Notes: generated by a model from the letters alone, not told the origin. DNA of 64,000 nucleotides from Candidatus Magasanikbacteria bacterium RIFCSPLOWO2_12_FULL_43_12 (GCA_001783065.1 MFQN01000003.1:15314-79313), one strand, 5' to 3'; shown: positions 26,393 through 41,672, counted from the stretch's first letter. Numbers and translations: made by a program.

Positions 26393-26414
26393 AATGCGCC
26401 TGGATGTAAAAAAT

Positions 26415-26551: not shown

Positions 26552-27256
26552 CTACCCCCTCGCCACGCTAAACCCAATCACTCTTTTAACGCCGGAGGAT
26601 TTCAATACTCGCGCGCATTCTTGCATGGTCGCGCCGGTAGTGAAAACGTCGTCAACTAATAAAACCGCGTTTGCCCGAAAATCGCTATTAACAAACGCGT
26701 GGTGGACATTTAATTGCCGTTCTTCACGAGAAAGCTTGGCTTGCTGTAAAGTATAACGATCTCGCTTTAACAAATCAACCACCGGCCGGCCGATTTTCTG
26801 ACCTAAAATATCTGCCAACAGGCGCGCCTGATTGAATCCTCGTTCCGCAAAACGCCTGCGATGCAGAGGCACCGGAACAATCAAATCTATTTCTGACAAA
26901 ACTCCAAGCTGATGAATTAAAAATCCGTCAATCATTTTCGCGAACACGGCGATAATCTCTTCGGCATAATTATACTTTAGTGCCTTGATTAATTTCCCAA
27001 CCAAGTTCTCTTCTTGATAAACTGCGATCGCCACTGCTCTATCTAAACAAGACTGTGGCTGACAAACAGCGCAACAAGCGCCATTCCCATTCGGCCGATA
27101 ACAAACCGGACAATAAAATACACCGCGCAAATCTATTTTGCCAAAACAATCCGCGCAAACCCATTCTCCCTCCTTATCGCAACCCAGACAAAAAATGGGA
27201 AATAAGCAATCTTTACTTATCTGCAAAATTTTTGAAACAGCAGTCTTTGTCGCCAT
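26552..27256 (-). CDS. comFC: competence protein ComF (phosphoribosyltransferase-type with N-terminal zinc ribbon)
   Basis: Cys pairs C..C...C..C in CLFPIFCLGCDKEGEWVCADCF... and CPVCYRPNGNGACCAVC; PRTase motif ...AVLLVDDVFTTGATMQE...; 234 aa. Confidence 0.8.
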   Translation of the reverse strand: MATKTAVSKILQISKDCLFPIFCLGCDKEGEWVCADCFGKIDLRGVFYCPVCYRPNGNGACCAVCQPQSCLDRAVAIAVYQEENLVGKLIKALKYNYAEEIIAVFAKMIDGFLIHQLGVLSEIDLIVPVPLHRRRFAERGFNQARLLADILGQKIGRPVVDLLKRDRYTLQQAKLSREERQLNVHHAFVNSDFRANAVLLVDDVFTTGATMQECARVLKSSGVKRVIGFSVARG

Positions 27257-27308
27257 ACATACAAAAAGAGGTCGAGCCTCTTTTTAGCAAATATATTCTT
27301 AACAAAAA

Positions 27309-27358
27309 TTAGTATACATTAGTATCATTAGTACTCTATTCGTATATTAGTATTTTAA
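27309..27358. repeat. TAGTAT-rich ~45-nt repeat, copy 1 (CATTAGTATCATTAGTACTCTATTCGTATATTAGTATTTTAATTAGTATCCC)
   Basis: Nearly identical to 28046-28097 and, in reverse complement, to 30008-30052. Confidence 0.75.
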
Positions 27359-27960
27359 TTAGTATCCCAATAAAACCCACCCACCTTCCACTCTCCGCCT
27401 GCATCAACCAAATCAACCGTACCGGACCGATATGCAGTTTCCTGCTTATCAGCGTTGCTTTTAATCTGCTGTGTATCTACTTTGACTGACGCGCTGTTAT
27501 CAGAAATATTTGATAAGCTCGCGGCAATCACTTTCGTTGTTACACCCTGATACTCCGCCGCGGTTTTAATTTTTTGCGTTTCAATCCATTTGCCCATCGG
27601 TGATGTGGCTAAAATCAAAACATCATCAATATGCGTGTTGTCATTCTGGTTTGAAAAAGTGGTAAATCTTTCCACAAATAATCTGGCGATTTGTTTGGCG
27701 TAAATCTCGCGCGACTTTTCCACTGGAACAAAAACCTCCGGCTCTTTCGCGGGCGGTAAAACCGCCCCGCCGCCAGCCGGCGCGGAAGAACCGCCGGGCA
27801 ACGTTGCTGTGGTTTCCGCTGTGGTCTCTCCAGTCAACGGCGCCGCCACTTCTACCGCTTTTTTCTTATTTAAAACAAAATAAAACAGCAGAGTGAAAGC
27901 TAAGATAAAACCTATTCCAAGACTCAAGATAATAAAGATTCTTTTACGAAGGTCTAACAT
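27355..27960 (-). CDS. hypothetical exported/membrane-anchored protein (N-terminal TM, Ala/Gly/Thr-rich linker)
   Basis: 201 aa; IFIILSLGIGFILAFTLLFYFVL then TAETTATLPGGSSAPAGGGAVLPPAKEPE low-complexity segment. Confidence 0.55.
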   Translation of the reverse strand: MLDLRKRIFIILSLGIGFILAFTLLFYFVLNKKKAVEVAAPLTGETTAETTATLPGGSSAPAGGGAVLPPAKEPEVFVPVEKSREIYAKQIARLFVERFTTFSNQNDNTHIDDVLILATSPMGKWIETQKIKTAAEYQGVTTKVIAASLSNISDNSASVKVDTQQIKSNADKQETAYRSGTVDLVDAGGEWKVGGFYWDTN

Positions 27961-28039
27961 ATACCAATATACTAATTTACTAATTATACAAATGCTATAC
28001 CAATGTACTTTGAAGTTTCTTAATATTAAATACTTTCTT

Positions 28040-28097
28040 TATCAAGATTAGTATAGCATTAGTATCATTAGTACTCAATTCGTATATTAGTATTTTA
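28040..28097. repeat. TAGTAT-rich repeat, copy 2 (direct), immediately downstream of virB4
   Basis: ttagtatagcattagtatcattagtactcaattcgtatattagtattttatta. Confidence 0.75.
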
Positions 28098-30002
28098 TTA
28101 CCCTATATCCAAATCTTGGTTGCCGCCCTGCCGTCCGCCCATCTGCGCCTCAAACTCTTTCTTCGCCTTTTCAATAGCCATAAGTTGCGCCGGGTCGGAA
28201 GTAATCAGCTGGTCTTCGGTGTAAGACGCGATGACTTTAATCGCGGCGCGTTTTAGACCGGCAAAGAAAATTCCTTCGCCAACCGCGCTTTCCAACAATA
28301 AATATTTCTCGCCTTCGGTCAGCATAAAAGTTTTTTGGATAATATCAACCGCGGCCGGCAACTGGCGCAAAAGAAGCTGCAAGGCCGAATTGGTGACGAT
28401 TGAATGGCCATATTGCGACTGCAAAAAGTCATTAACATCCTGCGTAATCGTGGTAACGCCCAAATAATACTTGCGGCATCTTTTGACCAACGCGTAAATA
28501 AACTTCGCGCTGTCCTCATGCGTCATCAACCACCACGCTTCATCAATAATCAGCAAACGTTTTTTCCGCTCGCTCCGAACGATATTCCAAACATAATTAA
28601 CCAAACTATAAATCGCCATCGGACGCAACTCATCTTCCAGATCGCGCACGCTGAACACCACCAACTGATTGTTCATGTTAACGTTGGTCGGCGAATTAAA
28701 CAATCCGGAAAAAGTGCCTTCCGTGTATTTTTTAAGCTTCAAAACCATTGTCTGCGCCCCCTCCATTCCTTCCAAAACATCAAGCAAGTCCTGCATTATT
28801 GGCGGTTCAACCGTGGCTAAGTTAGAACTGGGCGTAATATCTTTTTTCGCGTAGGTCTCTCGCAGCGCCTGATCCATCACCGAATCTTCCAGCGCGCTTA
28901 AAGAACCAAACATAATTCTTATCAAGCCCTTTGAAGTAATTATCGCGCTTCTAATCACGTCCTCGGTGGAAATCTGCTGGCCGACCGGCCGCGGCAAATC
29001 AAAAGGATTAACTTTGCTTTCCGATGCCAAAGAAATATTAACATAAGTGCCGCCGACCGCTTCGCATAAGTGCTGATATTCCATTTCCGGGTCTATGATA
29101 ATAATGTCAGTGCCCATCATCAAACTGCGCAAGACTTCCAATTTTACCGCGTATGATTTTCCGGCGCCGGAGGTGGCAAAAACAACCATGTTGGCATTTT
29201 GCAAACTGAATCTGTCAAACAAAATCAGACTGTTATTATGCTGATTAATGCCGTACAAAATGCCATTATCGCTCGTCAATTCCGCGGACATAAACGGAAA
29301 CGACGCGGCAATCGGCGATGAATTCATGTTAAAAGCAATGTTTAATTCGTCAACGCATAAAGGCATGGTGGAGTTAAATCCCTGTTCAGCTTGAAACAAC
29401 ACGTGTTTGCTGTAAATCAATCGCGCGCCAAAAACATTTTCAATATCTTCCGTCATTTTATTCAACTCATCAACCGACTTGGCGTATAAAGTAACATAAA
29501 AAGCGAATTGAAAAAAATGTTCCGTACCCTGCGTTAAATCATCGCGCAGTTGCTCAATGTCGCGCAAAGCGGTTTCGCGCAAAGGATCGCGCGCCGCGCC
29601 TTTTTCCGCGTCCGCGCTAATCTGCGCTTCCAGCACGCCGACTTTCTTTTTTAATTGCTTTAAAATAATCGCCGAATTGATCGGATAAAAAAACATTGAG
29701 GTGTCCATCGTGGCGTTAAAATTCAAAATTGGCGCGCTCCAGCCCACGGCGATATAGCGCGGGTAAGTAATGGCAAAAATCGTGCGCAAAAAAGTCTCGC
29801 CAAGCTGGATGAAATTTGATTCAACCCGAAAGGCGGACGGCGCGATTAGATCGCGGATCGCCACCGTGCCTTCGCGGTAAACGCGCTCTTCTTCCAGAGA
29901 AATCAATTCCTCCCGCACTTCTTTCTTTTTCTTTTCCGCTTCTTCTTGGGACTTCGCGCTGCCGAGAAATTTCTTGTCAATTGTGGTCGGCTTAAATGGC
30001 AT
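28098..30002 (-). CDS. virB4: VirB4/TrbE-family type IV secretion ATPase
   Basis: Walker A ...VVFATSGAGKSYAVKLEV...; Walker B/DE ...LLIIDEAWWL...; 634 aa; overall VirB4/CagE layout. Confidence 0.85.
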   Translation of the reverse strand: MPFKPTTIDKKFLGSAKSQEEAEKKKKEVREELISLEEERVYREGTVAIRDLIAPSAFRVESNFIQLGETFLRTIFAITYPRYIAVGWSAPILNFNATMDTSMFFYPINSAIILKQLKKKVGVLEAQISADAEKGAARDPLRETALRDIEQLRDDLTQGTEHFFQFAFYVTLYAKSVDELNKMTEDIENVFGARLIYSKHVLFQAEQGFNSTMPLCVDELNIAFNMNSSPIAASFPFMSAELTSDNGILYGINQHNNSLILFDRFSLQNANMVVFATSGAGKSYAVKLEVLRSLMMGTDIIIIDPEMEYQHLCEAVGGTYVNISLASESKVNPFDLPRPVGQQISTEDVIRSAIITSKGLIRIMFGSLSALEDSVMDQALRETYAKKDITPSSNLATVEPPIMQDLLDVLEGMEGAQTMVLKLKKYTEGTFSGLFNSPTNVNMNNQLVVFSVRDLEDELRPMAIYSLVNYVWNIVRSERKKRLLIIDEAWWLMTHEDSAKFIYALVKRCRKYYLGVTTITQDVNDFLQSQYGHSIVTNSALQLLLRQLPAAVDIIQKTFMLTEGEKYLLLESAVGEGIFFAGLKRAAIKVIASYTEDQLITSDPAQLMAIEKAKKEFEAQMGGRQGGNQDLDIG

Positions 30003-30003
30003 A

Positions 30004-30120
30004 ATTCATAATACTAATATACGAATAGAGTACTAAATGATACTAATGGATACAAATATTTAGCATCAGAGGGTATTAGTATTCATTAGTATCATTAGTA
30101 AATTAGTATATTGGTATGTT
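30004..30120. repeat. TAGTAT-rich repeat copies 3-4 (inverted relative to copies 1-2), immediately upstream of virB4
   Basis: 30008-30052 is the reverse complement of the 27313-27355 core; 30070-30118 is a degenerate direct copy (tattagtattcattagtatcattagtaaattagtatattggtatg). Confidence 0.7.
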
Positions 30121-30123
30121 AAA

Positions 30124-30804
30124 CTATTCTATTTGCAACTGTTCAATCGGCTGAAGCTGTTCCGCCAATGAGATATCCGGATTGTAGCTGGAATAAAATA
30201 ATTCAATCGCCGCTTGGGTGTCCAACTGAACTACTTCCAACCCCATGCCCTGCAAACCGGAAAACACCTGCCGCAAACGCATATTTAAATCCTCTTGACG
30301 CTGTTTGAACCGCTCTTCTTTTAAACGCACGCTCAAGGCCGGTTTCAACACTTCTTTAAACTTCGTCCAAAAAGATTTTCTCTTGTTGGAAAGCGGGTCA
30401 TACGGCACCACCACATAAAAACGCTTGGTCATTATCTGTCCCATCTGTATCAACTCCTGAATAAACGAACGATAGTCCGCGGTTTGGATGCGCAAAAGCT
30501 CGTTCGGCTGCTCTTTTTCCAGTTGGATTAATTTTTCCACGTATGGCTTAATCTGCAACTTGCGCGATTGTATTACTATTTGCAAAGGAAAATCCAACGA
30601 ATTTAGAAAACTCACATACGAAGAAATCAAAGCGTTCTGCTCATCTTCCGATTTTAACGCAAAATTGATGCTGGAAGTCATCAGCACCGCGCGCAAAGTT
30701 CCGTCTTTCAAAATTATCGCGCCGTCTTTTATTTCCGCGATTGGCAAGTGCGTCTGCGTGGACGGCTTGCCAGACTTTTTCTTTTTTACCTTTTCGTTTT
30801 TCAT
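30124..30804 (-). CDS. hypothetical protein (226 aa, Lys-rich N-terminus), T4SS-cluster component
   Basis: Lies between the PrgI-like gene and virB4 with a 2-nt gap to the upstream gene; no recognisable domain. Confidence 0.5.
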   Translation of the reverse strand: MKNEKVKKKKSGKPSTQTHLPIAEIKDGAIILKDGTLRAVLMTSSINFALKSEDEQNALISSYVSFLNSLDFPLQIVIQSRKLQIKPYVEKLIQLEKEQPNELLRIQTADYRSFIQELIQMGQIMTKRFYVVVPYDPLSNKRKSFWTKFKEVLKPALSVRLKEERFKQRQEDLNMRLRQVFSGLQGMGLEVVQLDTQAAIELFYSSYNPDISLAEQLQPIEQLQIE

Positions 30805-30805
30805 A

Positions 30806-31249
30806 TTACTCCTCCGGCCGATAAAACCCGCCGGTATTCACAATTAAAGCCAAATCCCTGATATGCTCGCTCCGCGCCGCTTTTCTCTCTTCTTTTTCTT
30901 CAATCTCCGGCGGTTCTTGCAAACGCAGATAATTTAATTCGTCTTTATCATAATTTTTCCGCCAAACACGCAAGCCCGGACGGCGGACGGTTTGCAATAA
31001 ATTTAAAATAAAATAATGAAATGTTTGACCGTTAATTTTTACAAAGGCCACGATTAGCGACCCGCCGCCAACCACCGCCAAAGTTGTGATGAATAAAGCG
31101 AAATCAGCGTATTTGAAAGCAAGGAAAACCAACAGTCCGGACGTGAGCAGAATTAAAAACTGCCGCACCGTTATCGGCCCGAAAATCTTGTCTTCCACGT
31201 CAATGAATTGCGGGACTACAAATTGTTGCATAGCCAATTTAACAATCAA
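30806..31249 (-). CDS. PrgI/TcpE-like (VirB3-analogous) small membrane protein
   Basis: 147 aa; ...QFVVPQFIDVEDKIFGPITVRQFLILLTSGLLVFLAF... plus a second TM helix. Both the position upstream of virB4 and the motif are characteristic of Gram-positive-type PrgI. Confidence 0.55.
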   Translation of the reverse strand: MIVKLAMQQFVVPQFIDVEDKIFGPITVRQFLILLTSGLLVFLAFKYADFALFITTLAVVGGGSLIVAFVKINGQTFHYFILNLLQTVRRPGLRVWRKNYDKDELNYLRLQEPPEIEEKEERKAARSEHIRDLALIVNTGGFYRPEE

Positions 31250-32502
31250 ATTGTCTTTCCAACCTCCGCTATTCTTTCAAACTCTTCAAATTTAATTCCA
31301 CTCTCTCCCACAACTTCCGTTAGTTTCCTCCTCTCATTCACCGCGCGCTTAATTAAATTCTGATAATCTTTATACACCGGGCTGCTAAACCACGCATCCA
31401 GCGCCTGAAGATATATTATAACAGATTCTTTCCTTAAAGCCGAGAACTTACCGCGCAAAACCTGAATTGAATCAATCCCGCCGGTCGCCAAACGGCGGAA
31501 ATCTGTCAAAGTCATTGTCGCGATCTCATCAATCGGCCCCAGGGAAACTTTCTCCGCCGGTTCAACTTTCGGCGGCACAACATCTTGAACCAACGGTTTG
31601 GTGTTAATCCCCAACACCTCCCCTGCCCTCCTCCGAGGAGGGAGCTTGTTAGCCACACCATCGGATCCGCCTGCCGGCGATACAGAGAAAGTCTGTGAGT
31701 GTATCCTAACACCTCCATCGCCCTCCTCCGAGGAGGGAATTTTTGAGCTCCCATCTCGGAGAGGGGTAGGCCTTCGAGGCTCTAAGGAGCCCTCAGGCTC
31801 TCGAAGAGGGGGTGTGTTCGCCAAATGCCAAATTTTTTTTATCGCCGCGATCACCGCAGCTGTTTGTTCTTCAGAAAATCCCAACCCGCCTTCCGCCTCG
31901 TTTCTTTGCAAATACCCGCGCATTTGCTCTTCATTCCTCACTCCCTTTACAAAAGACACGACCAACGAATTCAATCTCCCTCTCATTTCATCTTTAACCG
32001 GAAATCTGATTTCTTTTACAAACAAATCATACAAATCACCTCTCTTGTCAGGCAAAACATTTACTGCTTTAATTTTCATCGCTTCATCAGCAGAATCTTC
32101 CAACAACGACTTATTATCCTCTCTCGTCCACGCTTTCACCTCACTATTTTTCTGTTTCTTGTTATCTGTCTCCTGCATTATATCGTCAACTCTTTGGGTT
32201 TTGTTAATTGTGTTTTGTGTTTTGCTCTTCACTGTTCGCACATACTTCGCTTCATCCACAAAAATATCCTTCACCGGCGCCGCCGTCGCTACCGCTTCCT
32301 CGCCAATCTTCGCCGGCAGATTTGACCCCAGCTCTCGGACTTCAGCTTTCGGATTTATGATTTTAGGTTTAGCAATCTCAACACTCGCCGATTGAGTTTT
32401 GTTAATTGTGTTTTGTGTTCTGTACACGCCAAACTCATCCCAACTCATCCTTACGGACGTGCCGTCGGATTTTTTGACGAGGATTGTGGGTTGATTGGGC
32501 AT
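31246..32502 (-). CDS. hypothetical protein (418 aa) carrying in-frame GC-rich palindromic insertions
   Basis: Starts MPNQPTILVKKSDG (shared 5' module). Internal TQNTINKTQ duplication. The segment ...VANKLPPRRRAGEVLG... is encoded by CCTCCTCCGAGGAGGG palindromes. Confidence 0.55.
   Translation of the reverse strand: MPNQPTILVKKSDGTSVRMSWDEFGVYRTQNTINKTQSASVEIAKPKIINPKAEVRELGSNLPAKIGEEAVATAAPVKDIFVDEAKYVRTVKSKTQNTINKTQRVDDIMQETDNKKQKNSEVKAWTREDNKSLLEDSADEAMKIKAVNVLPDKRGDLYDLFVKEIRFPVKDEMRGRLNSLVVSFVKGVRNEEQMRGYLQRNEAEGGLGFSEEQTAAVIAAIKKIWHLANTPPLREPEGSLEPRRPTPLRDGSSKIPSSEEGDGGVRIHSQTFSVSPAGGSDGVANKLPPRRRAGEVLGINTKPLVQDVVPPKVEPAEKVSLGPIDEIATMTLTDFRRLATGGIDSIQVLRGKFSALRKESVIIYLQALDAWFSSPVYKDYQNLIKRAVNERRKLTEVVGESGIKFEEFERIAEVGKTI
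31601..31812. repeat. GC-rich palindromic element cluster, copy 5 (CCCTCCTCCGAGGAGGG x2, CCCATCTCGGAGAGGGG, GGCTCTCGAAGAGGGGG), in frame within the 31246..32502 gene
   Basis: ctcccctgccctcctccgaggagggag ... cgccctcctccgaggagggaa ... cccatctcggagagggg ... ggctctcgaagagggggtg. Confidence 0.7.
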
Positions 32503-32505
32503 AGA
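32463..32505. repeat. conserved ~40-nt 5' module (reverse strand ATGCCCAATCAACCCACAATCCTCGTCAAAAAATCCGAC, encoding MPNQPTILVKKSD), copy 1
   Basis: Also at 33928-33976 and 34563-34610 with 3-5 substitutions. Confidence 0.7.
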
Positions 32506-33744
32506 TTAAAGCTCCCAAGGATAAATGCAGTGTTCATCTTTTTTCTTTCCTTCTAAACCAACCACCTTATAGTCTTTGGCTTTGTATTTCTTGCAAAATG
32601 AATTTACGGCATTGCTTTTAAAATTTCTAAAATTTGTTTTCACCTCTATCGGCAAAAGAGACGCGCGCAAATCTAAAACAAAATCAACTTCCGCGTGCCT
32701 GTGTGTCCGCCAAAAATGTATGCGCTCGCGTCCATATTTTTTTACGAGCTCGGCAAAAACGCTGGTTTCAAACAGATCGCCGCTAATCCTAGCGCTCAGT
32801 TCCTTATAACGCAATACCTGCAACAAACCTGTATCATAAAAAAATATTTTAGGAGCCTTTGACACCTCAACATTGGCGCTATGGCTAAACGGATGGACAA
32901 ATTTTATAATATACGTGTTCTCTAAAATTGATAGATACTGTTCAACTGTCTGCGCCGCCAAACCTATTGTGCTTGCCGTGGCAGATACGCTTAAAAGCTG
33001 TCCGCTCTGTGCCGCCAAAACTTTCAATAAGTTATTAAACTTTTCTATCTCCACAATATTAGCCAAATCTCTTATGTCTTTCCGCACATAAGTGTCAATT
33101 ATAATCTGCAAATATTTTTCTTTTATTTCTATTGAATCTTGCAAAACAATTTTCGGATATCCGCCATAAAAAACATATTCGCGATACATACGGATGACAT
33201 CTTCAAAAATCGGCCCTTTGCCAAGTTTAGACACCTGTTCCAAGTTATAGTTAATGTTTTTAAACCTCAAGAACTCGCTGAACGATAAATTAAAAACTTC
33301 AAAGTTGACTATCCTGCCAACGAGCGAATCACTAAATTTATTCTTAATATCAAAACTGGACGAACCTGACACAATTAGCTTTAGATACTTATGATGATCT
33401 GCCAACAATTTCAAAAAAGACGACGGTTTCTTAAGATTCTGTATCTCATCTATAAAGACAAATAATTTTTTATCCGACCGGCTTAACTCTCCCCAATCAA
33501 ATCCAGCCCCTTCAAGATAAGATAAAAAATTTTCCACGCCAGCGTCAAGGATGTCTGTTTTTCTTGAATCCTCAAGATCAAAAAAGTATGTTTTTTCACC
33601 GGCCGCATTCAGCTGATCTTGCAAATAGAGCATTATGGATGTTTTTCCAACTTGTCTTGCGCCATGTAACACCAAAACATCGTCTATATTGATATACTTC
33701 AAAATTTCATCTAAAATATCACGTTTTATCAAGTTTTTTGTCAT
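32506..33744 (-). CDS. AAA+ ATPase of the COG1373/DUF4143 type
   Basis: P-loop ...LHGARQVGKTSIML...; DEIQ Walker B ...VFIDEIQNL...; 412 aa; C-terminal region typical of DUF4143 ATPases. Confidence 0.75.
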   Translation of the reverse strand: MTKNLIKRDILDEILKYINIDDVLVLHGARQVGKTSIMLYLQDQLNAAGEKTYFFDLEDSRKTDILDAGVENFLSYLEGAGFDWGELSRSDKKLFVFIDEIQNLKKPSSFLKLLADHHKYLKLIVSGSSSFDIKNKFSDSLVGRIVNFEVFNLSFSEFLRFKNINYNLEQVSKLGKGPIFEDVIRMYREYVFYGGYPKIVLQDSIEIKEKYLQIIIDTYVRKDIRDLANIVEIEKFNNLLKVLAAQSGQLLSVSATASTIGLAAQTVEQYLSILENTYIIKFVHPFSHSANVEVSKAPKIFFYDTGLLQVLRYKELSARISGDLFETSVFAELVKKYGRERIHFWRTHRHAEVDFVLDLRASLLPIEVKTNFRNFKSNAVNSFCKKYKAKDYKVVGLEGKKKDEHCIYPWEL

Positions 33745-33927
33745 AAGTGTATGTATTTCTAAACTGCACTTTCATTTTACCATACCTTTATTTCAAAGTC
33801 AAGTTTAACTTTACCTTATGATTTTTTTACACCATACTCCCATTTTATCTGGCCTTTTTCTATCACCACACTGCCATTTAACCGCATTTTTACACCTTTT
33901 GGCTGTGTTAAGCGGAAAATAAGTTGT

Positions 33928-33976
33928 AATTGTTGGATTTTTTACGAGAATTGTGGGTTGGTTTGATGGCATAATG
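33928..33976. repeat. MPxxPTILVK 5' module, copy 2 (intergenic, 190 nt upstream of the ATPase gene)
   Basis: Reverse strand atgccatcaaaccaacccacaattctcgtaaaaaatcc. Confidence 0.65.
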
Positions 33977-34058
33977 TTATCCACTTGACAAATGAATTGA
34001 TCTACTTTATACTTTAGGTAGTATTACTAGAAAAGAGCACTTCTTAATGGTTTCGTCC

Positions 34059-34559
34059 TTAAGCGGTGCTTTTTTTATACTCTAGCTTTCCGCGCAAATT
34101 TTCCATAAAAAATATTTTCTCTTTTGCGTGTTGTCTCAACAGTCCGGAGCACCTTTTGTAATTCGGGCTTAATACTGCCAATAATTTCCTTTTTCCGTAC
34201 AGGTATCTAACCAAAGAATAAAAATCGCCGTCGCTTGTTACTACCAATGCCTTATCAAATTTTTCTAATTCTATCATCACCTGAAGCACCAAATCAGCAT
34301 CAACATTTCCTTTCAAATCACCATTTCCATCAGGAATAGTCGGCTTAAATATTAAAATAAAACCCGCCTCTTGTAATTTATTATACAAGTCTTGATTGCC
34401 GCTGACAAAACCAATAAATAAATACGCTCTCTCAATATGATATTTCTCTTTTAAATATCGTCTGAATCTTTTGTAATCTAATTTCCACCCTAAACTCAAA
34501 ATCCCTAAATGCAGATTCTGACTGTCAATAAACGCGTAATTGTTTCCTATTTTTGGCAT
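34059..34559 (-). CDS. NYN-domain (LabA-like PIN) protein
   Basis: ...NYAFIDSQNLHLGI..., ...AYLFIGFVSGNQDLYNKLQEAGFILIF..., ...NVDADLVLQVMIE...ALVVTSDGDFYSLVRYL...; the start is taken at MPKIGNN because the ORF-track N-terminus is translation of the repeat module in another frame. Confidence 0.7.
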   Translation of the reverse strand: MPKIGNNYAFIDSQNLHLGILSLGWKLDYKRFRRYLKEKYHIERAYLFIGFVSGNQDLYNKLQEAGFILIFKPTIPDGNGDLKGNVDADLVLQVMIELEKFDKALVVTSDGDFYSLVRYLYGKRKLLAVLSPNYKRCSGLLRQHAKEKIFFMENLRGKLEYKKSTA

Positions 34560-34562
34560 ATG

Positions 34563-34610
34563 GTCGGATTTTTGACGAGAATTGTGGGTTTGGTGGGCAT
34601 ACCGGCACAA
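34563..34610. repeat. MPxxPTILVK 5' module, copy 3
   Basis: Reverse strand atgcccaccaaacccacaattctcgtcaaaaatccgac. Confidence 0.65.
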
Positions 34611-34638
34611 TCTTACCGAATTTATTTACTAATCAACC

Positions 34639-36231
34639 TTAATCAAATTCTATATCTGGATTCGTAGATAAATATTTTAATTTCTTCCTCGCTTCCTCTT
34701 CTGCCTGCTTCCAAACACTTTCTTCTATACCAAATCTAAACCACGGAGTGTACCAGCTGTCCGGTAATTTTTTATTAAATTTAACTTTTCCTTCTCGTTC
34801 ATCAAAATATATAATTGGTCCGTAATCAAAAGAAGGGAACACTTCTGAATACAAATCGCTTAGACGCGCCACCCGGCTCAAAAACGGCTCATCTTCCCAC
34901 GGCACAGACTCAAAAGCGGTTATAAGTTTTGCCTTTGTCAACGCCGGCCGATCAAACAATTTAAAATGTTCTCTTAATTCTTCCGTATCTTTGTCGCTAA
35001 TATCTTGCCGCACAATTTTTTTCCAATCATATTTATCCGATAAAATCTGTTCTTCGGTGAGTATCCCGCGATAATCCACGAAATCGCAATCACGCAAATG
35101 GATATATAAATACAATAACTTCTGCAATAACGGCTTCAAACCAAGCGGCCATTTATGCTCGGCAATGGCTTGATTAATATACAAATCATGTTCAGCAACA
35201 TCACGACCATCGCCTTTGGCGAAAGACAAAAATCCCTTAATGAATCCGCCGACTGTTGTTTGGTCTTCACCAACATGAATAAGCTGCGCGCTATAACGCA
35301 AAAGTTCGGAGAAACTACCAGAATTAATAATATAATCAGTTAACAAGGGCCGACCGGCTAAATACTCCTGCAATTCTTTTTCAATCAAGACCCCAAAACA
35401 CAGCGCTTCCCACAGATACCATTCCATGGCTCTGGCCTGCCGCCATTCGTTCAACTCGTTAAAATTACCCAGAGATAAATGCAAAAGTACGATAAACAAC
35501 AGGTGGTCCGCTTCAAACTCAAAAATGTTTTTATCTGCTTGTTTAGCATTAACATATAAAAATTTACCTGCCCAAGTCAATGCTTCTCCATCGTGATTAT
35601 GCACGGCTTGACCCAAAATCCGTAATACCGGCACCCAATCAACAACCGGAACGTCTGGCTCCTTTTCTAAACCAGCAAGTTGTACTGACCCACCCAGCGG
35701 CGAATAATAAAGAAGAGCGGCCGCTATCAACCTAAGCTGTGGTTTTAATTTTTCATATAGCTCCGCCACCACTGTTAGCTGTTGGCTAATTTTTAACTGT
35801 ACCGCGTCCGTTCGACTGAACACTTTGGCAGACATCAATTCTATTCCCTGTTTATCCAATTCCAACAGCGCGCCTAATGCTTTCCATGATTCAATGGTGG
35901 CAGACGCAGTTTGACCGATTACTCCTCTCTGACTACTCTCAAAGACGACTACAGCCTCGTCAATTTTATCACGCAGAATAGCGACTACCTCCCAATTTAT
36001 CTGCTCAAGCATGGCCACAAAAAAAGCATCGCGTTTGTCGGAAACTGGTTGAGAAAAATCAAAACGCGACATCTCTTCTTGTAAATCCGCCAGCCATTGC
36101 CAAACCGATTCGTTTTTCCAAGCAGTGCCAAAAAACTCCTCGGCTGATGATACAGCCAAAATGATACTTCCCAATCTTTTTTGCCACTCAGCTGTCGTGG
36201 CCGGTACAAAATATTGAGGTAACATAGTCAA
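34639..36231 (-). CDS. hypothetical protein (530 aa)
   Basis: Long ORF without recognisable motifs; co-oriented within the T4SS-like cluster. Confidence 0.55.
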   Translation of the reverse strand: MTMLPQYFVPATTAEWQKRLGSIILAVSSAEEFFGTAWKNESVWQWLADLQEEMSRFDFSQPVSDKRDAFFVAMLEQINWEVVAILRDKIDEAVVVFESSQRGVIGQTASATIESWKALGALLELDKQGIELMSAKVFSRTDAVQLKISQQLTVVAELYEKLKPQLRLIAAALLYYSPLGGSVQLAGLEKEPDVPVVDWVPVLRILGQAVHNHDGEALTWAGKFLYVNAKQADKNIFEFEADHLLFIVLLHLSLGNFNELNEWRQARAMEWYLWEALCFGVLIEKELQEYLAGRPLLTDYIINSGSFSELLRYSAQLIHVGEDQTTVGGFIKGFLSFAKGDGRDVAEHDLYINQAIAEHKWPLGLKPLLQKLLYLYIHLRDCDFVDYRGILTEEQILSDKYDWKKIVRQDISDKDTEELREHFKLFDRPALTKAKLITAFESVPWEDEPFLSRVARLSDLYSEVFPSFDYGPIIYFDEREGKVKFNKKLPDSWYTPWFRFGIEESVWKQAEEEARKKLKYLSTNPDIEFD

Positions 36232-36242
36232 TTGCCTAATTA

Positions 36243-39200
36243 TTATTCTCCTCTTCTTTTTCCTTCACTTGCCCTTGCAAGCGAACGCCTTATACGCTCT
36301 GGGTTAAACCGATAGGAAGAATCTTGATTTACCCAAGCCACTAATTCTTCAACATTGTTTATGTTTTCACCGCAAATATTCATATTAAGGTTGCCCTTCA
36401 TACCATCATCAAACGATAAACCGCTTCGCTCGGCAAGTGAACCAAACAGGGCAGCAGGGTTATTCTGTAAAAATGCGGCGTAATTACCACGGAGTCGCTT
36501 TTCGACTTCTTTTTTGCGCTGATCTTTGTCAATAATATGTTTAAAAGTGCTTCTGAAATATGCTGAATCATCGTCGCCTATTTTTGTTCTTCCATTTTCA
36601 TCCTGACGTATTGTCTCTCCAGCGGCCATACCGGCGATGTGATCTTTATTTCTGCCATCAACTTTAGCGAATTCGCGCTGATTAGACAATCCAGCAAATG
36701 TTTCTCTGATTGCGTCATCGCATTCTTCACTCGCTGTATAATCTATTGTTCCAAAATCTTCCTGCATTTGACCTATGCTGTGGGTTTTTAAACGAGATAA
36801 ACGTTGGTCAAGACCCAATTTACGCCACTCGCCCAACACAAACTCCTTGCCTTTGTGGCCCAAGTTACCGCGTAACATTCCTTCATTCATATCATAATAA
36901 GTGTGTCCGCCGTCATCAATGTGGCCAGTGTTCATCGCCAAATTTTTAAAGTCTGCCAACATCTCAAATGCTTCCGTAAATTCATCCATAGACTTCATAA
37001 ATGTCGCAGCGGCCATCTTTGCACCATCCGCCATTCCCGCCACTGGTTCAATAAATTTTTCTGTATAAGCCATAAGTTGTTCAATGCTGGCGTCTACCGC
37101 GGCAGTGGCTCTGACATCACCTTCTCCTGCCTTTTCTATTTGCTCATCTGTTATCATCCCGGCTTCCTTCGCTACCCGCATTCTTGAGAGTTTGTCTGCG
37201 CCAGGACCGACTATGTTTGCATAATTGCTATGTGCTATCTCTGCCAATTGTTTGTTTGCTTCGCCGTAACCTTCGTCTGTACTCTCCATACGCCACAAAA
37301 CAGCTTCTTCAGCTTGCATTTGTTTCCTATCCCCTCCCATGCCAATCAATTTTTGTACTTGCGCGGTTCGATCAGCCCCAGAACGATTATCTTTTGGATC
37401 CCAATGTAACTTGTTAATAAATATTTCTTCCAACGCTTCCGCCTCTTCTCTTTTTTCCCCGGTCAGAGTTTTCTTGCTGGTCGCCATCTTTGCAACCCGA
37501 GCTAATAAATCATCCATCCAGCCATTAGACGTAAGATGTTTGACATGGGCCATCATCTGCGCTTTTTGGTCGGTGGTAATCTCTTTACCTTGTTTTTGCA
37601 ATTTAAAAAATTGACCTAGTGTTCCCATGGCGTTTACCACTGACTGCTCGCGCTCCACCCCCTGCAATCTTTCCGTCTGTTTTTTTACCCAATCTTTAAA
37701 AGCAGAAGCTGGAGTTTTAAAATTATACCTCTCCAATGTGAAAATATCCGTGGCGTGATCAGCCGCTTCAGCTTTATTCGCTCCGGTAATGTCTTTGTTG
37801 TATTCAGCTATCATCTGCGCTTGCGCCATCTTCGCGCCGACATTTGTCAACGACAACGCTTCTAATGACAGTTTTATACCTTTTGCCTGAGCGCCTTCCA
37901 AAGCATCTTTCAATTCTTTCGCTCCTTTTTTGAATAAATCGCCCATTTTTTTATCCTTGATACCGTCAATAAAGGCCTTTGACGCTTCCGCTCCCATCTT
38001 TGAAGCTACCTCGGCTGAGAATAGTGAACCATAACTCTCTAACCCAAGAATAATTTTTTTTGCTTCTGTTTCCGATGCCTCTACTCCGGCACCAACCGCG
38101 GCAGCTTTCTGGGCTGCCTGTAAATAAGCAATGGCAACGTTACTATTCTTGCGTTCTACCTCTTTTCCGTTCGCCATCACCGGTTCGCCATCCTTGCCTA
38201 TCAAGAACCCACTATATAAGTCTTCTTCTATTTCTTCCAGTCGCTTACTAACCTCCGTGTCACGATCGCGTTGGTCCATTATTTCTTTCAATTCCTTACT
38301 AATTGGTGGTTTTTCTTTACTATCACTGTCACGATAATTTTTTATTTCTTTTTCGTCTGCATCCGGTAGTGTACTACCAGCATCCGCCACTACTTTATCC
38401 CAAGCATCACTTGCTTTAATTGTTTTTTCTGTCGCCGCCTTGTAGACATCTCGTTGTTCCGCAATAGTGCGACTGCCGTCTTCCACTCTTTCTGTCTTTT
38501 CTAAATCTGTGGCAATTTGAGCTTTTTTTTCTTCTATGGTCCTTTTTGCGTCTTCAACCGCATTTACCGCCTTCTGCCTTTCGTCTTCCAACTTCTTAGC
38601 TGCCTTTTCCTCCAAAAGTCCTTTGCTGTTGCCTTGAATTTTCACATCCAGATCTTCTATCTTTTTTTCTTCCGCCACCTTCATCTTTCCAAGTTGAGTT
38701 TTGTCCTTGTCAGTCAAAACTCCCTCGGTATCTTTCAACTTTTCACTAATTTTTTCCAATGTTTCTTCCGCTTTATTCTTCTCCTCTTTATCCTCAATCA
38801 TCTCCGTATATTCTCCGCTTTTCTTTAGTATTTTCAATCCTTTTTCCGCAAATTTAATTTCCTCATTTGCTTTATTTAAATTCGTCTGCGCCAATAGCAC
38901 ATCGGTGTCCGTCTTTAATTTTGCGTCAACAACAACCTGTATCTTAGCCTCTGCGGTTCGCAAGATATTTTTTGCGCCAGCCTCTTCTGCCTCTGCCGCT
39001 ACTAAATCACTGCTCTTTCGTCCTTCTCGCGCTTCGTCGCTATCTTTGACAGCTTTCTCCATATCAGGCCTCGCCCTTTCTATAATTTTCTTCCGCTCAC
39101 TGCCTATCAGCGCCTTCCCTTCTTCCTCCCACCTCTGCTGTCTAATCGCAAAACGCGCGGCTTCCCCGGCCAGTGTGGACACCTCTCCTGTGTCTGGATT

Positions 39201-40826
39201 GAAATAGGCTTTGCCGTCTTTATAACGCGGTCCGTGCATTGCTTTTTCTTTTGCCTCTGCCACTCCTTCGGCGTCTCTATGCTTACTCCTTTCCTCATAC
39301 GCTTCTAACTCACCATGTCTGCTGCGAGCGCGATTGCCCCATTGCCCGCTGGATTGCATTTTGCCTAACAAATCTTCTGCATATTCCGCTGTATGTTCCG
39401 CCGCTTTCAGGTGTTTTTTCCTCCTAGCTGTTCCACCAGCCAAAACTCCCACATTCCAACCAAAAAGTTTACGCATACCCCTGCCCATATAATCTTCTTT
39501 AGCCAAGTCACCCTTACCTCCAGCCCCAGTGTACCAGGCATCCTTGGTTCTCGCCCATTTCATCTTTGCGTGTTCGGTCCAAAACTCTCCTCCCAAAGGC
39601 ATGTGCCACAGCGCGCCTTTCCCAGCCAACTTTACTCCGCGTCCTGTCGCCCCAGCCAACCACCTCCCCGCGGCATAACCGGTCGCGATGGTGGCGACTT
39701 TGCCGAAGAAATCTTTAGCCTTGGACGCGACACTGCCGCCGGCAACGTTGAGTTTCTGCACTTCCTGCAAGCCGACGAATAACAATACTATGGCCACCAA
39801 AAAATTCGCCATGTTTTCCCAAGTGGTAACCGCGGATAAAGTTAAAGCGCCGACTGAATCAATGCTCCCTGCCTGCAACATTTGGTCGGTAATGCCGATG
39901 TCGCTACCGAGCGTACCGGAGCCGGCAGTGGCAAAAGCCAGCCACATGAAAAACGAAATTGTTGGCGCGAGCACGACATAATTGGAAAATTCCTTCCACC
40001 ATTCGCCATAGCGATTCGTGGTTTGCGGCAAAGCGATGAATAAAAACGCCAACGGAGATAAAATAATCAAAACCCACAGCACTGTCATCCGCAAAAGCAT
40101 CATTATCGCGTAAGCGCCCATTACCAGCATGGCAAGCAAAGCGAAAAGCATGGCCACAACAGAAGCCACCAGTGTCCGGCCCAACAAATTAAAACTTTCT
40201 CCACCAACGCCAACATCATTTTTCCCGGTGGTGATAGCGTAAATCTTTTCAAAATGAAACATGTTGATCAGATTGCCGCCGGCTGTCGCGGAAATCGCGC
40301 TGGCAAAAGTCAGAGTGAAAACATGCGCCGCGTCAATGAAAAGCTGGCAAATCAAATTACTGAAATTAACAAACACCGCGCTTAAAATAAGTTTGACTAG
40401 AGTCTTATTCCATTGATATTGTTCAATGCCGAGAATGGTGCCAATGGCGATCACCAGCAAAATCACCACAAAAAACATATTGACCACATCGCGTACCATC
40501 AGCCAGCCAAGCTTGACTACCGGAGAATCAATATAGTTGTTGTATTGAGCTAACGCGATAAAAAAGCGCAGGAAAAAAATGCTCATTTTTATAAAAAACT
40601 CACCCAAACCCAGGGCCAGATTCGTAAACATGTCCATTATGCCGCCGGAAATAACCCCCATATCGCCCAAAGCTGGGTTTGCCATTGAAGTGAGCGGGAA
40701 CATCACCGCGCCAATCACCAAAATTACAAACAAAAAACTCAAGCCTGTTTTGCCTTTCCTAAACACAAGCAAACACAAAAATCGTTTCAGGATAAGAAAA
40801 AATTTTCGCTTTAATAAGCTCTTCAT
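36243..40826 (-). CDS. giant VirB6/TrbL-like polytopic membrane protein with a ~1000-aa charged coiled-coil/low-complexity C-terminal extension
   Basis: 1527 aa. The first ~450 aa contain at least 8 hydrophobic helices (FLFVILVIGAVMF, LVAIVLLFVGL, etc.). The remainder is Glu/Lys/Ala-rich and heptad-like (...EEKAAKKLEDERQKAVNAVEDAKRTIEEKKAQIATDLEK...). Confidence 0.65.
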   Translation of the reverse strand: MKSLLKRKFFLILKRFLCLLVFRKGKTGLSFLFVILVIGAVMFPLTSMANPALGDMGVISGGIMDMFTNLALGLGEFFIKMSIFFLRFFIALAQYNNYIDSPVVKLGWLMVRDVVNMFFVVILLVIAIGTILGIEQYQWNKTLVKLILSAVFVNFSNLICQLFIDAAHVFTLTFASAISATAGGNLINMFHFEKIYAITTGKNDVGVGGESFNLLGRTLVASVVAMLFALLAMLVMGAYAIMMLLRMTVLWVLIILSPLAFLFIALPQTTNRYGEWWKEFSNYVVLAPTISFFMWLAFATAGSGTLGSDIGITDQMLQAGSIDSVGALTLSAVTTWENMANFLVAIVLLFVGLQEVQKLNVAGGSVASKAKDFFGKVATIATGYAAGRWLAGATGRGVKLAGKGALWHMPLGGEFWTEHAKMKWARTKDAWYTGAGGKGDLAKEDYMGRGMRKLFGWNVGVLAGGTARRKKHLKAAEHTAEYAEDLLGKMQSSGQWGNRARSRHGELEAYEERSKHRDAEGVAEAKEKAMHGPRYKDGKAYFNPDTGEVSTLAGEAARFAIRQQRWEEEGKALIGSERKKIIERARPDMEKAVKDSDEAREGRKSSDLVAAEAEEAGAKNILRTAEAKIQVVVDAKLKTDTDVLLAQTNLNKANEEIKFAEKGLKILKKSGEYTEMIEDKEEKNKAEETLEKISEKLKDTEGVLTDKDKTQLGKMKVAEEKKIEDLDVKIQGNSKGLLEEKAAKKLEDERQKAVNAVEDAKRTIEEKKAQIATDLEKTERVEDGSRTIAEQRDVYKAATEKTIKASDAWDKVVADAGSTLPDADEKEIKNYRDSDSKEKPPISKELKEIMDQRDRDTEVSKRLEEIEEDLYSGFLIGKDGEPVMANGKEVERKNSNVAIAYLQAAQKAAAVGAGVEASETEAKKIILGLESYGSLFSAEVASKMGAEASKAFIDGIKDKKMGDLFKKGAKELKDALEGAQAKGIKLSLEALSLTNVGAKMAQAQMIAEYNKDITGANKAEAADHATDIFTLERYNFKTPASAFKDWVKKQTERLQGVEREQSVVNAMGTLGQFFKLQKQGKEITTDQKAQMMAHVKHLTSNGWMDDLLARVAKMATSKKTLTGEKREEAEALEEIFINKLHWDPKDNRSGADRTAQVQKLIGMGGDRKQMQAEEAVLWRMESTDEGYGEANKQLAEIAHSNYANIVGPGADKLSRMRVAKEAGMITDEQIEKAGEGDVRATAAVDASIEQLMAYTEKFIEPVAGMADGAKMAAATFMKSMDEFTEAFEMLADFKNLAMNTGHIDDGGHTYYDMNEGMLRGNLGHKGKEFVLGEWRKLGLDQRLSRLKTHSIGQMQEDFGTIDYTASEECDDAIRETFAGLSNQREFAKVDGRNKDHIAGMAAGETIRQDENGRTKIGDDDSAYFRSTFKHIIDKDQRKKEVEKRLRGNYAAFLQNNPAALFGSLAERSGLSFDDGMKGNLNMNICGENINNVEELVAWVNQDSSYRFNPERIRRSLARASEGKRRGE

Positions 40827-40857
40827 GCTGGTTGTTTGAAGACAGCGGTATTATACC

Positions 40858-40965
40858 ATATTTTATGCGCGAAGAGGAGGGGGTGGGGATAACGGCGAGC
40901 AGGATGCAGGATGCACGCAGCATGACACATTTTTGAAAAACAAAAAATCCTCGTTATTATTACGG
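40858..40965. repeat. upstream leader element with GGATGC/GGATAC heptad repeats (gggataacggcgagcaggatgcaggatgcacgcagcatgac...gaaaaacaaaaaa), 5' of the VirB6-like gene
   Basis: Shares ACGGCG.ACAG.ATGCAGGAT.CA and the A-rich tail with 56880-56945 and 58685-58760. Confidence 0.55.
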
Positions 40966-40985
40966 GAATTTTTTTTCTTAAAGTT

Positions 40986-41195
40986 TCACTCTAACCCAGC
41001 CGCGCGTAAAATCGCTTTTAATGTGCCTATCGGCAAATTCTTTGAATGATACGGAACCACAGCTCTTTTCTCTGGTAACGGTTGGTAAAAAACATAATGA
41101 CTGCCTGAAACATGATCCAAAATAAAACCATTTTCTTGCAATAATTTTATTACTTGTTTTGAAGTCAGCCGTGGAGTTTTAGGCATAAGCCACAT
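40986..41195 (-). CDS. hicA: HicA-family toxin
   Basis: 69 aa; ...LTSKQVIKLLQENGFILDHVSGSHYVFY... is the YcfA/HicA signature. Confidence 0.8.
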   Translation of the reverse strand: MWLMPKTPRLTSKQVIKLLQENGFILDHVSGSHYVFYQPLPEKRAVVPYHSKNLPIGTLKAILRAAGLE

Positions 41196-41421
41196 CCAAT
41201 GAGGTAATAAAACTATGTTCGTCGCTTACGACTTCGCCACCATGTTTGCGAACACTCTTAAGATACGAATCAATCGCATCAATCGCCATTTCTTTTGCTT
41301 CAGTCAAAGTGCGGCCGAAAGTAATACAGCCAGCTAAGGCCGGCACAATAACCGTAAAACCGCCCTCAATTTCAGGACGAAAAATTAAATTGTAATGCAA
41401 ATTTTTTTTCATATTTTTCAC
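41179..41421 (-). CDS. hicB: HicB-family antitoxin
   Basis: 80 aa; ...YNLIFRPEIEGGFTVIVPALAGCITFGRTLTEAKEMAIDAI... RNase-H-like HicB fold pattern; overlaps hicA by 17 nt. Confidence 0.8.
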   Translation of the reverse strand: MKNMKKNLHYNLIFRPEIEGGFTVIVPALAGCITFGRTLTEAKEMAIDAIDSYLKSVRKHGGEVVSDEHSFITSLDVAYA

Positions 41422-41479
41422 AATATTATTAACACATATACACTACAGAATTTAATCAAAAAAGTCAATACACACCTTA

Positions 41480-41550
41480 TGCGTCTTATTACACTCCCCC
41501 GTACACCACCACCCAGCTATTCAACACCTGAACGCGAGGAATGATAAAAA
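41480..41550. repeat. ~70-nt duplicated fragment of the 60694..64000 gene (homologous to 60871-60945), intergenic
   Basis: cttatgcgtcttattacactcccccgtacaccaccacccagctattcaacacctgaacgcgagg versus cttatacgtcttatcacactctcccgtacaccacccccaattatccaacacctgaacacgagg. Confidence 0.7.
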
Positions 41551-41672
41551 TAGTATACTAATACTCACTGATGATAATTTGAATAACATTCATATTTTCT
41601 TTTTCTAACAAAAAACCATCTCAATATTAAGACAGTTTTTTGTCTGAAAGAATTTTGTTTGCATAAAATCTT

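Follow-up and report, generated by a model that had tools for sequence, protein, structure and literature searches.

A 64,000-nt stretch of the genome of Candidatus Magasanikbacteria bacterium RIFCSPLOWO2_12_FULL_43_12 (MFQN01000003.1:15314-79313; here called the window, with positions counted from its start) contains a tight row of ten minus-strand open reading frames (ORFs) at 26.5–40.9 kb, extending from a VirB6-like gene through comF. This cluster is a real type IV secretion system (T4SS)-like, non-conjugative apparatus adjoining comF, and we regard it with good confidence as a vertically inherited chromosomal T4SS of the Patescibacteria clade, in its ABY1/Magasanikbacteria form, that derives from monoderm (MPF-FATA-like) conjugation machinery and has neither a relaxase nor a type IV coupling protein (T4CP). 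We assign it to the Patescibacteria type because of its composition, its synteny, its host-like G+C content and its lack of mobility genes. The type of T4SS, its association with comF and the class of extended VirB6 proteins have all been published. We add here the definition of the ABY1 block as eight genes ending in comF, a quantification of the comF coupling, and the description of three conserved parts without detectable relatives (two protein families, p530 and p418, and the C-terminal domain of the VirB6-like protein) that are obvious candidates for substrate recruitment. We also remove one false lead, in which a DUF4143 ATPase and a NYN-domain protein appear as subunits, and document a small insertion hot spot and strain-variable hairpins in an operon that is otherwise rigid. 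The Patescibacteria T4SS is essential in the one instance where this has been tested.

Conserved gene order and absence of mobility genes

Comparison with T4SS-like loci of other Patescibacteria shows a single conserved order across 45 species-level genomes. The loci were collected by searching the VirB4 protein against one genome per species (VirB4 identities of 65–97%), and gene order was determined using tblastn, ORF calling and iterated hidden Markov models (HMMs). Most are labelled as Candidatus Magasanikbacteria or other Patescibacteria; many have ‘uncultured Gammaproteobacteria’ titles and are evidently mislabelled bins. The order that is kept is the extended VirB6-like gene (VirB6ext), one or two genes of the p530 family, a gene of the p418 family, PrgI, TrsD, VirB4, a VirB8-like gene and ComF, and the same order, followed by recG, is present in a more distant contig (L047) that was reached through a VirB6 homologue. 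The spacing is operon-like, with all genes on one strand, median gaps of 6–27 nt and many overlaps. The flanks beyond the block vary by lineage, and the interval from VirB6 to comF is therefore the conserved unit. All nine minus-strand ORFs that an initial annotation of the sequence had placed in the cluster are present where it put them, as are the two competence genes it reported nearby, comF (26552–27256) and dprA (14952–16031). The probable start of the operon is an extended -10 promoter-like box, TGGTATAAT (40850–40858, minus strand), recognized by reading the sequence, 24 nt before the start codon of the VirB6-like gene; a terminator-like hairpin of hicA (~40950–40966) lies just upstream of the box, and this succession makes it the likely operon start. 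A consensus promoter scan did not flag the box, since it has no -35 match.

The 234-aa ComF protein (minus strand) appears to be of the ComFC type, with a zinc ribbon (DZR_2) and a Pribosyltran domain by Pfam; its best NCBIfam match is full-length to TIGR00201 comF (1.5e-29), with 103 bits where the cut-off is 233, and the match to GntX (4.3e-28) is also below the cut-off. In 34 of the 38 loci that reach far enough, ComF is the next gene after the VirB8-like one and has the same orientation. The gap between the two has a median of 27 nt and is at most 30 nt in 21 of 35 loci, with the genes abutting or overlapping in eight. A recG gene is found a few kb past comF in eight more distant loci, and the window has one at 5873–8149. 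Of the two competence genes noted in the initial annotation, comF is part of the conserved neighborhood and dprA is not, as dprA was not found in the 10-kb flanks of any locus. In the window dprA is 11 kb from comF, with topA among the genes between them, and a linkage of dprA to the cluster is ruled out. Adjacency of dprA and topA is common in bacteria.

No relaxase, T4CP or integrase domains were found in the ~60 ORFs of at least 100 aa that were scanned across the 64 kb, and there is no VirB2-like pilin anywhere in the window, in agreement with the initial annotation, which had noted no relaxase, coupling protein or pilin. A separate T4CP gene is likewise absent from the conserved block of the 45 loci, and a full conjugative element contiguous with the cluster was looked for in the 64 kb and not found. 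A second interpretation of the region is that it is a decayed or integrated conjugative element (the remnant of an integrative and conjugative element, ICE), with repeats as its boundaries and an insertion site beside tRNA-Ser and comF. Several features could be taken to favor this: the VirB4 is of a type (the CD1110 family) found on Gram-positive ICEs, tRNA-Ser (26418–26504) adjoins comF, there are repeats in the region, and a variable low-G+C region of toxin and antitoxin genes lies upstream. However, in addition to the missing integrase, relaxase and T4CP, the block and its left flank (comF, HSP20 and VanW) are syntenic across dozens of species-level genomes, and the core genes have a G+C content of 0.43–0.47, the same as the housekeeping flanks. 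The repeats are internal hairpins that are absent from a relative with a 97%-identical VirB4, and the only direct repeats of a junction type flank the DUF4143 and NYN cassettes rather than the cluster (see below). An ICE remnant is thus largely refuted and highly improbable, and the proposal that this is a T4SS-like apparatus rather than an ordinary conjugative element is sustained by the lack of relaxase, T4CP and integrase in the window and by the synteny with housekeeping genes.

VirB4, TrsD and PrgI

The 634-aa ORF at 28098–30002 (minus strand) encodes the C-terminal two-thirds of a VirB4 ATPase, as the initial annotation had recognized; it matches the Pfam TraG P-loop (1.8e-28) and AAA_10 (4.1e-11) families and is above the curated cut-off for the NCBIfam VirB4-like conjugal transfer ATPase of the CD1110 family (8.2e-103, 345.1 bits, cut-off 325). 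The Walker A (GAGKS) and Walker B (LLIIDEAW) motifs can be read intact in the translation. Matches to coupling protein models are sub-threshold P-loop cross-matches (T4SS-DNA_transf, 0.015; CD1115, 0.027). The protein also has weak similarity to CedB (2e-11, 43.2 bits, cut-off 700) and CedD (22 bits, cut-off 600), and the CedB score reflects only the general similarity of VirB4 and HerA proteins.

The N-terminal part of VirB4 is provided by the preceding 226-aa ORF (30124–30804, minus strand). This ORF had been listed as a protein of no assigned type; it is present, and NCBIfam matches to the N-terminal part of four VirB4 models and to the TrsD/TraD model now identify it as a TrsD-like N-terminal VirB4 domain. 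It covers positions 11–117 of the CD1110 model and 5–179 of TIGR00929, with the 634-aa ORF covering CD1110 positions 177–728, and one homologue of the TrsD-like protein matches Pfam PF26593 (TraC-like). TrsD and VirB4 are encoded as separate ORFs, with a median gap of 7.5 nt, in 42 related loci; the split is therefore ancestral, and a frameshift or pseudogene is ruled out. The 147-aa ORF upstream (30806–31249, minus strand) is PrgI/VirB3-like, as had been proposed, with a Pfam PrgI match above the cut-off (1.5e-7, 32.3 bits, cut-off 27) and a hydrophobic segment at residues 26–70. The PrgI gene is kept in 42 loci.

The VirB6-like and VirB8-like proteins

The first gene of the cluster (36243–40826, minus strand) encodes a 1527-aa protein whose N-terminal ~400 residues we accept as VirB6-like from a combination of homologue matches and modelling. 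Residues 1–360 contain a signal or anchor sequence and about seven hydrophobic spans (residues 29–357). Using the N-terminal 491 aa we found 41 homologues, several with precomputed PF04610/PF19590 (TrbL/VirB6) assignments and one named by NCBI as a ‘type IV secretion system protein’; scanned singly, 11 of the 41 match the Pfam TrbL/VirB6 family (PF04610), the best at 1.6e-6. An AlphaFold2 (AF2) model of residues 1–420 (pLDDT 78.5, pTM 0.72) was compared with the PDB using Foldseek, and the top six matches are all chains of R388 T4SS stalk-complex entries, four of which are described as the TrwJ/VirB5-TrwI/VirB6 stalk complex. The VirB6/TrbL-like N-terminus in the initial annotation is thus supported indirectly, by the TrbL matches among the homologues and by the fold matches.

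The remainder of the protein differs from what had been described as a charged coiled coil of ~1000 aa. Only residues ~500–900 are highly charged (42–47% K, R, E and D), and residues 421–900 have no homologue in any related protein and form a non-conserved linker. Hydrophobic periodicity of 3.5 residues is patchy within the linker, with z>3 only near residues 750–890, and a continuous coiled coil across residues 420–900 is ruled out, since there is no unbroken heptad signal. Residues 915–1504 (within window 36243–38100) constitute a conserved, non-repetitive domain of ~600 aa that belongs to the long VirB6 forms, is present in 16 related ORFs and is encoded as a stand-alone ORF in two genomes (L014 and L044). 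Its invariant positions are P, W, DD, H, G, K, H, R, G and N and include an H-x-DD-x-GH motif, and the domain could have a catalytic or metal-binding role. The domain has no relative in Pfam or the PDB by profile search; Pfam scans of all family members gave scattered chance matches, and a word-indexed homologue search with the domain returned a single protein. A VirB6 fusion of this kind had been thought unusual. However, all of the complete homologues are 858–1668 aa long, and extended VirB6 proteins are an established category (PMC12857230). The C-terminal extension is probably cytoplasmic, like the C-terminus of Agrobacterium VirB6, because it is preceded by a K/R-rich segment (8 K/R in 60 aa) and the loops assigned to the outside contain no K or R.

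We note that a distant Patescibacteria contig (L046, 10001–16539) contains a different context of the same VirB6-like family, in which a gene for a 786-aa VirB6/TrbL-like protein adjoins type IV pilus genes (T2SSF platform and N_methyl pilins) and there is no VirB4 within 10 kb.

At the other end of the cluster, immediately before comF, is a gene (27355–27960, minus strand) for a 201-aa protein (p201), which had been called a secreted protein. The ORF is present, and its product now appears to be a membrane-anchored VirB8-like protein with an NTF2 fold. The AF2 model (pLDDT 78.5) has an N-terminal transmembrane helix, a disordered and variable linker and an alpha3-beta4 NTF2-like domain, and Foldseek matches it with TrwG/VirB8 of R388, the Bartonella and Brucella VirB8 proteins, CagV, TcpC, PrgL and OrfG. 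All 44 homologues of p201 are encoded at the same position next to VirB4, and a 99%-identical copy is present in a RIFCSPLOWO2 Magasanikbacteria metagenome-assembled genome. VirB8-like is the best reading because of the bitopic architecture together with the fixed place beside VirB4 in 44 loci; the fold alone is not decisive.

The p530 and p418 families

Two further families complete the conserved block. The 530-aa p530 protein (34639–36231, minus strand) is soluble, with no transmembrane segment, and represents a clade-specific family occupying the slot between VirB6ext and p418. An iterated HMM finds 20 members at this position, and other genomes have one or two p530 paralogues of 320–520 aa; p530 has no match in Pfam, NCBIfam, PADLOC or the PDB. 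The 418-aa p418 protein (31246–32502, minus strand) is also soluble and is encoded in nearly every one of the related loci (42 members). It has three modules: an N-terminal one with a hairpin-like PTIxVKKxDG motif, a central one with RxxSLxxSRxKxVR...GGLGL, and a C-terminal helical domain with GPxxEL..FTLxDFRRL. With 1527 clusters at E≤1e-3 and 485 at 1e-10 among 1.84 billion representatives, p418 belongs to a large family that has no Pfam, NCBIfam or PDB match, the Pfam scans of all members giving scattered chance matches. The p418 linkers are encoded by sequences with internal direct repeats, at 31610–31653/31705–31748 and 32194–32224/32392–32422.

A number of observations weigh against the assignment of the cluster as a non-conjugative Patescibacteria T4SS or against the identification of its parts. 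The VirB6-like domain of the window's own 1527-aa protein has no significant match in a Pfam scan, its fold matches are weak (E values of 3e-3 to 0.11, probabilities of 0.92–1.00 and TM-scores of 0.21–0.40), and a PDB sequence-profile search with the family of the N-terminal domain found no solved VirB6, only coiled-coil noise from the charged linkers. Similarly, no solved VirB8 was found in a PDB sequence-profile search with the VirB8-like family, and generic NTF2 proteins such as bile-acid dehydratases and CaMKII hubs match p201 equally well. The cytoplasmic placement of the VirB6 extension depends on a positive-inside count made by hand, and it needs two membrane spans in residues 215–265 where the AF2 model draws one long helix. 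The roles given to p530, p418 and the VirB6 C-terminal domain are guesses, as these have no detectable homology. In this strain the VirB8-like gene is followed by a weak terminator-like hairpin (27285–27263), whose end is 7 nt short of the comF start. For T4CP and relaxase, the absence applies to the 64 kb of the window, and VirD4 homologues are encoded far from virB4 in many Patescibacteria (PMC12102498). Lastly, in Southlakia comEC, comF and dprA are dispensable and the T4SS is essential (PMC10633639), which argues against an obligatory coupling of T4SS and competence.

Relationship to known systems

The closest described relatives are the Patescibacteria-clade T4SSs surveyed by Quinonero-Coronel et al. 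(2025, Microb Genom, PMC12102498), in which VirB4 is related to that of monoderm MPF-FATA systems, TrsD is its most frequent partner, VirB3 is of the PrgI type, and VirB6 is present. VirB8 homologues are almost confined to class ABY1, relaxases are nearly absent, and the ABY1 loci commonly include comF, recG and radA. The Magasanikbacteria cluster has the same TrsD-VirB4, PrgI/VirB3, VirB6 and VirB8-like components, is chromosomal, lacks a relaxase, and has the same comF and recG neighbors; nothing fundamental distinguishes it from the ABY1 form. The T4SS of the Saccharibacterium Southlakia epibionticum (SEML1_0006-0019), which Wang et al. (2023, Cell, PMC10633639) showed to be essential for epibiotic growth, is also of monoderm type, has no recognizable relaxase or coupling protein in the cluster and is closest to Gram-positive conjugative systems. 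However, next to virB4 the Southlakia locus carries peptidase and lysozyme genes and an essential set of VirB2-like pilin genes, with no VirB8 detected, whereas pilin and hydrolase genes are lacking from the present locus, which does have a VirB8-like gene and comF.

Among Gram-positive MPF-FATA systems (the CD1110 family of CTn2, Prg/Pcf of pCF10, and Trs of pGO1) the VirB4 type, the PrgI-type VirB3, a polytopic VirB6-like protein and, probably, an NTF2-type VirB8-like protein are shared with the Magasanikbacteria cluster, and pGO1 has a separate TrsD N-terminal domain, as here. Unlike them, the present locus has no T4CP (PcfC/VirD4), relaxase/oriT, hydrolase (PrgK/TrsG) or adhesin, and it is chromosomal and vertically inherited rather than residing on a plasmid or ICE. 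The Helicobacter pylori ComB system and the archaeal Ced system (CedA/A1/A2/CedB) are DNA-importing VirB4-family machines that also operate without a relaxase or T4CP, and transformation of H. pylori also needs ComFC. They differ in that ComB has the diderm components VirB7, VirB9 and VirB10 as well as VirB2, and Ced possesses CedA and dedicated pilins; no matches to ComB-type VirB2, VirB7, VirB9 or VirB10 or to Ced pilins were found in the cluster with Pfam or NCBIfam. Extended VirB6 proteins (Alvarez-Martinez and Christie 2009; reviewed in PMC12857230) have a polytopic domain and a large hydrophilic C-terminal extension, as does VirB6ext here, which is distinguished by a charged linker and a 600-aa domain without detectable similarity to Pfam families or to solved structures.

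Possible substrates and function

By analogy with characterized T4SSs, PrgI and TrsD would anchor VirB4, as a hexamer, to a platform that the VirB6-like and VirB8-like proteins form in the membrane, and ATP hydrolysis by VirB4 would drive a substrate across the single membrane. If the VirB6 extension is cytoplasmic, its C-terminal domain together with p530 and p418 might take the substrate-docking role of the T4CP.

The only locus-specific clue to the substrate is the conserved and often translationally coupled comF with recG nearby, and it points to nucleic-acid handling. Handling of nucleic acid (DNA) together with ComFC and RecG is the single most likely substrate option for the ABY1 form, if a tentative one, and host-directed protein export or contact ranks after it as a possible alternative. 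The initial annotation had left a choice between DNA uptake and cell-cell contact; the comF link favors DNA handling and proves nothing.

One possible explanation is a dedicated DNA-uptake machine, in which a T4SS-derived channel powered by VirB4 imports DNA and passes single-stranded DNA to ComFC and then to DprA, RecA and RecG, analogous to ComB of H. pylori or to Ced. Such a machine would account for comF being the last gene in 34 of 38 loci and overlapping or lying within 30 nt of the VirB8-like gene in 21 of 35, including distant loci with other flanks, and for recG a few kb downstream in eight of the distant loci; the same comF, recG and radA neighborhood in ABY1 (PMC12102498), the absence of T4CP and relaxase, as in Ced, and the weak similarity of VirB4 to CedB (2e-11) are also in its favor. 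However, the CedB match reaches 43 bits where the cut-off is 700, the ComB-type and Ced-type components listed above are missing, and dprA is outside of the conserved neighborhood. ComFC normally partners ComEC, which Patescibacteria generally have, along with type IV pili; transformation of Southlakia depends on ComEC, and there comF is dispensable and the T4SS essential (PMC10633639, PMC12857230). Adjacency within one class may also represent inherited synteny. We consider a dedicated uptake machine conceivable but somewhat unlikely.

About as doubtful is a host-directed effector or contact system, in which an epibiotic Magasanikbacterium would use the apparatus for protein export, attachment or nutrient exchange with its bacterial host and the adjacency of comF would be incidental. 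The homologous Southlakia T4SS is essential for epibiotic growth, and delivery of DNA or proteins has been proposed for it (PMC10633639). The present system lacks the DNA-processing components of conjugation, and both the p418 linkers and, in VirB6ext, the linker and the C-terminal portion evolve fast, as expected of interaction surfaces. However, the conserved block contains no effector, adhesin, VirB2 pilin array or VirB1-type hydrolase, whereas Saccharibacterial loci carry essential pilin arrays, and the conserved and often translationally coupled comF is left unexplained.

Returning to nucleic-acid handling, a more speculative proposal, which we consider rather improbable, is that the ABY1 T4SS with VirB6ext, p530, p418 and operonic ComFC is a conjugation-derived importer of DNA (or a nucleotide scavenger) in a monoderm, and a bacterial counterpart of Ced. 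If this is true, p418 and the cytoplasmic VirB6 C-terminal domain, with its H-x-DD-x-GH motif, would handle the incoming strand, by processing or receiving it, ahead of ComFC and RecG.

Insertions of DUF4143 and NYN genes

Two of the ten ORFs are departures from the conserved order. The 412-aa ORF at 32506–33744 (minus strand) has Pfam AAA_14 and DUF4143 domains, and the 183-aa ORF at 34059–34610 (minus strand; translation probably begins at the ATG at 34559, giving 34059–34559) has a Pfam NYN domain (1.3e-11), so that both domain calls of the initial annotation are borne out. Their inclusion as members of the system is not. Both genes are present only in the window and the two other loci (L001 and L002) of the three closest genomes, and they are absent from 42 of the 45 related loci. 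The order also differs among the three carriers: p530-NYN-DUF4143-p418 in the window, p530-DUF4143-NYN-p418 in L002, and p530-paralogue-truncated NYN-DUF4143-p418 in L001. These two observations refute the pair as a general feature of the system.

The DUF4143 gene is part of a cassette of ~1450 nt (32505–33954, minus strand; Pfam and PADLOC), and this 1450-nt unit (33954–32505) is 93.7% identical to L002 5336–6785, where it is in the other position relative to NYN; the adjacent p418 genes of the window and L002 are only 74% identical. The cassette leader contains its own promoter-like site (33802–33774), the G+C content dips to 0.376 at the cassette, and the ATPase matches the PADLOC single-gene phage-defense candidate PDC-S01 over nearly its full length (1e-77, 259.7 bits). 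The DUF4143 cassette is thus a mobile or defense-type insertion, and the NYN gene a lineage-specific insertion, and neither is part of the T4SS.

Remnants of the p418 5′ end are present at the upstream junctions of both cassettes, at 34569–34601 (MPTKPTILVKN...) for NYN and at 33938–33970 (MPSNQPTILVKN...) for DUF4143; the two are members of a direct repeat family on the minus strand. The MPxxPTILVK module reported in the initial annotation is real, and consists of the true p418 start plus these two short remnants at insertion junctions. A TTCTCGTCAAAAA-like core is common to all of the insertion junctions. The remnants and the core at the cassette junctions mark the p418 5′ end as a hot spot for insertion (window 32505–34601); no recombinase was found near it.

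An alternative explanation is that the DUF4143 ATPase and the NYN nuclease are subunits of the apparatus, for example a substrate-processing pair that replaces the relaxase and T4CP. They are on the same strand within the cluster, and an ATPase and a nuclease make a plausible DNA-processing pair. However, they are missing from 42 of 45 loci and differ in order among the only three that have them, and the promoter-like site, the 94% identity of the unit between genomes with 74%-identical p418 genes, the low G+C content, the PDC-S01 match and the p418-start remnants at the junctions all argue against it. We consider it extremely improbable that the two are subunits.

TACTAAT hairpin elements

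A second type of variation within the operon is the presence of TACTAAT/ATTAGTA elements with arms of ~10-nt periodicity, located exactly between the stop and start codons of adjacent T4SS genes. There are 15 ATACTAAT sites in the window, compared with 1.8 expected, of which 13 are in three spacers (comF/VirB8-like, VirB8-like/VirB4 and VirB4/TrsD); single sites are also present just upstream of dprA (14927) and hicB (41555). Long AT-rich palindromic hairpin elements on the minus strand fill the VirB8-like/VirB4 spacer (27961–28097), with an RNA fold of -41.1 kcal/mol (z -7.35), and the VirB4/TrsD spacer (30003–30123), with a fold of -27.8 kcal/mol (z -5.7). A half element past the VirB8-like stop (27304–27354, minus strand, within a TACTAAT-rich stretch at 27304–27365) is in the comF/VirB8-like spacer, whose fold is not significant (z -1.45). 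No Rfam family matches the hairpin elements.

L002 and L003 carry the elements at identical junctions and L005 carries them after VirB4, but they are absent from L001, the relative with a 97%-identical VirB4, where the TrsD-VirB4 gap is 1 nt. L001 has a different, GCGAAAT-type palindrome between its VirB8-like gene and comF. The cluster had been described as repeat-bounded, and the repeats are real; however, they are in three internal spacers and not at the ends of the cluster, and a repeat-bounded mobile element is ruled out by this internal position and by their absence from L001. The TACTAAT hairpins are strain-variable intergenic palindromic elements that are not part of the machine, and they may affect mRNA processing or stability.

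Flanking regions

The left flank is composed of housekeeping genes, including recG, der, pth, dprA, a Mur ligase gene, topA, VanW, HSP20, an ATP-grasp enzyme gene and tRNA-Ser. The HSP20-VanW pair (PG_binding_4 + VanW; window 21263–23696) is found a few kb downstream of comF in most of the Magasanikbacteria loci (L009–L027). The right flank is a variable region of low G+C content that encodes HicAB, several HEPN/MNT pairs, a GNAT protein, a peptidase of family S49 and a polymorphic toxin of the RHS/SpvB type. The toxin is an RHS/SpvB/FG-GAP protein of 2390 aa (49606–56778) with a C-terminal RNase tip, and adjoins a barstar-like immunity gene (49248–49601). There are two orphan RHS-core tips (48133–49173 and 46277–46957) and a 242-nt repeat (43151–43392/48833–49074, 86% identity), and the interval 43151–56778 is an array of toxin-tip cassettes within the low-G+C region. 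Dense toxin-antitoxin modules at 40986–42358 and 56947–59138 include HicA/HicB, three HEPN/MNT pairs and a HepT-like RNase.

Two minor points concern the tRNA predictions in the left flank. A 90-nt ‘tRNA-Ile’ predicted by ARAGORN (16874–16963) is not confirmed by Rfam. The tRNA-Ser gene at 26418–26504 is confirmed, and a 498-aa ORF (24968–26464) overlaps it, so the real start of this ORF is further downstream.

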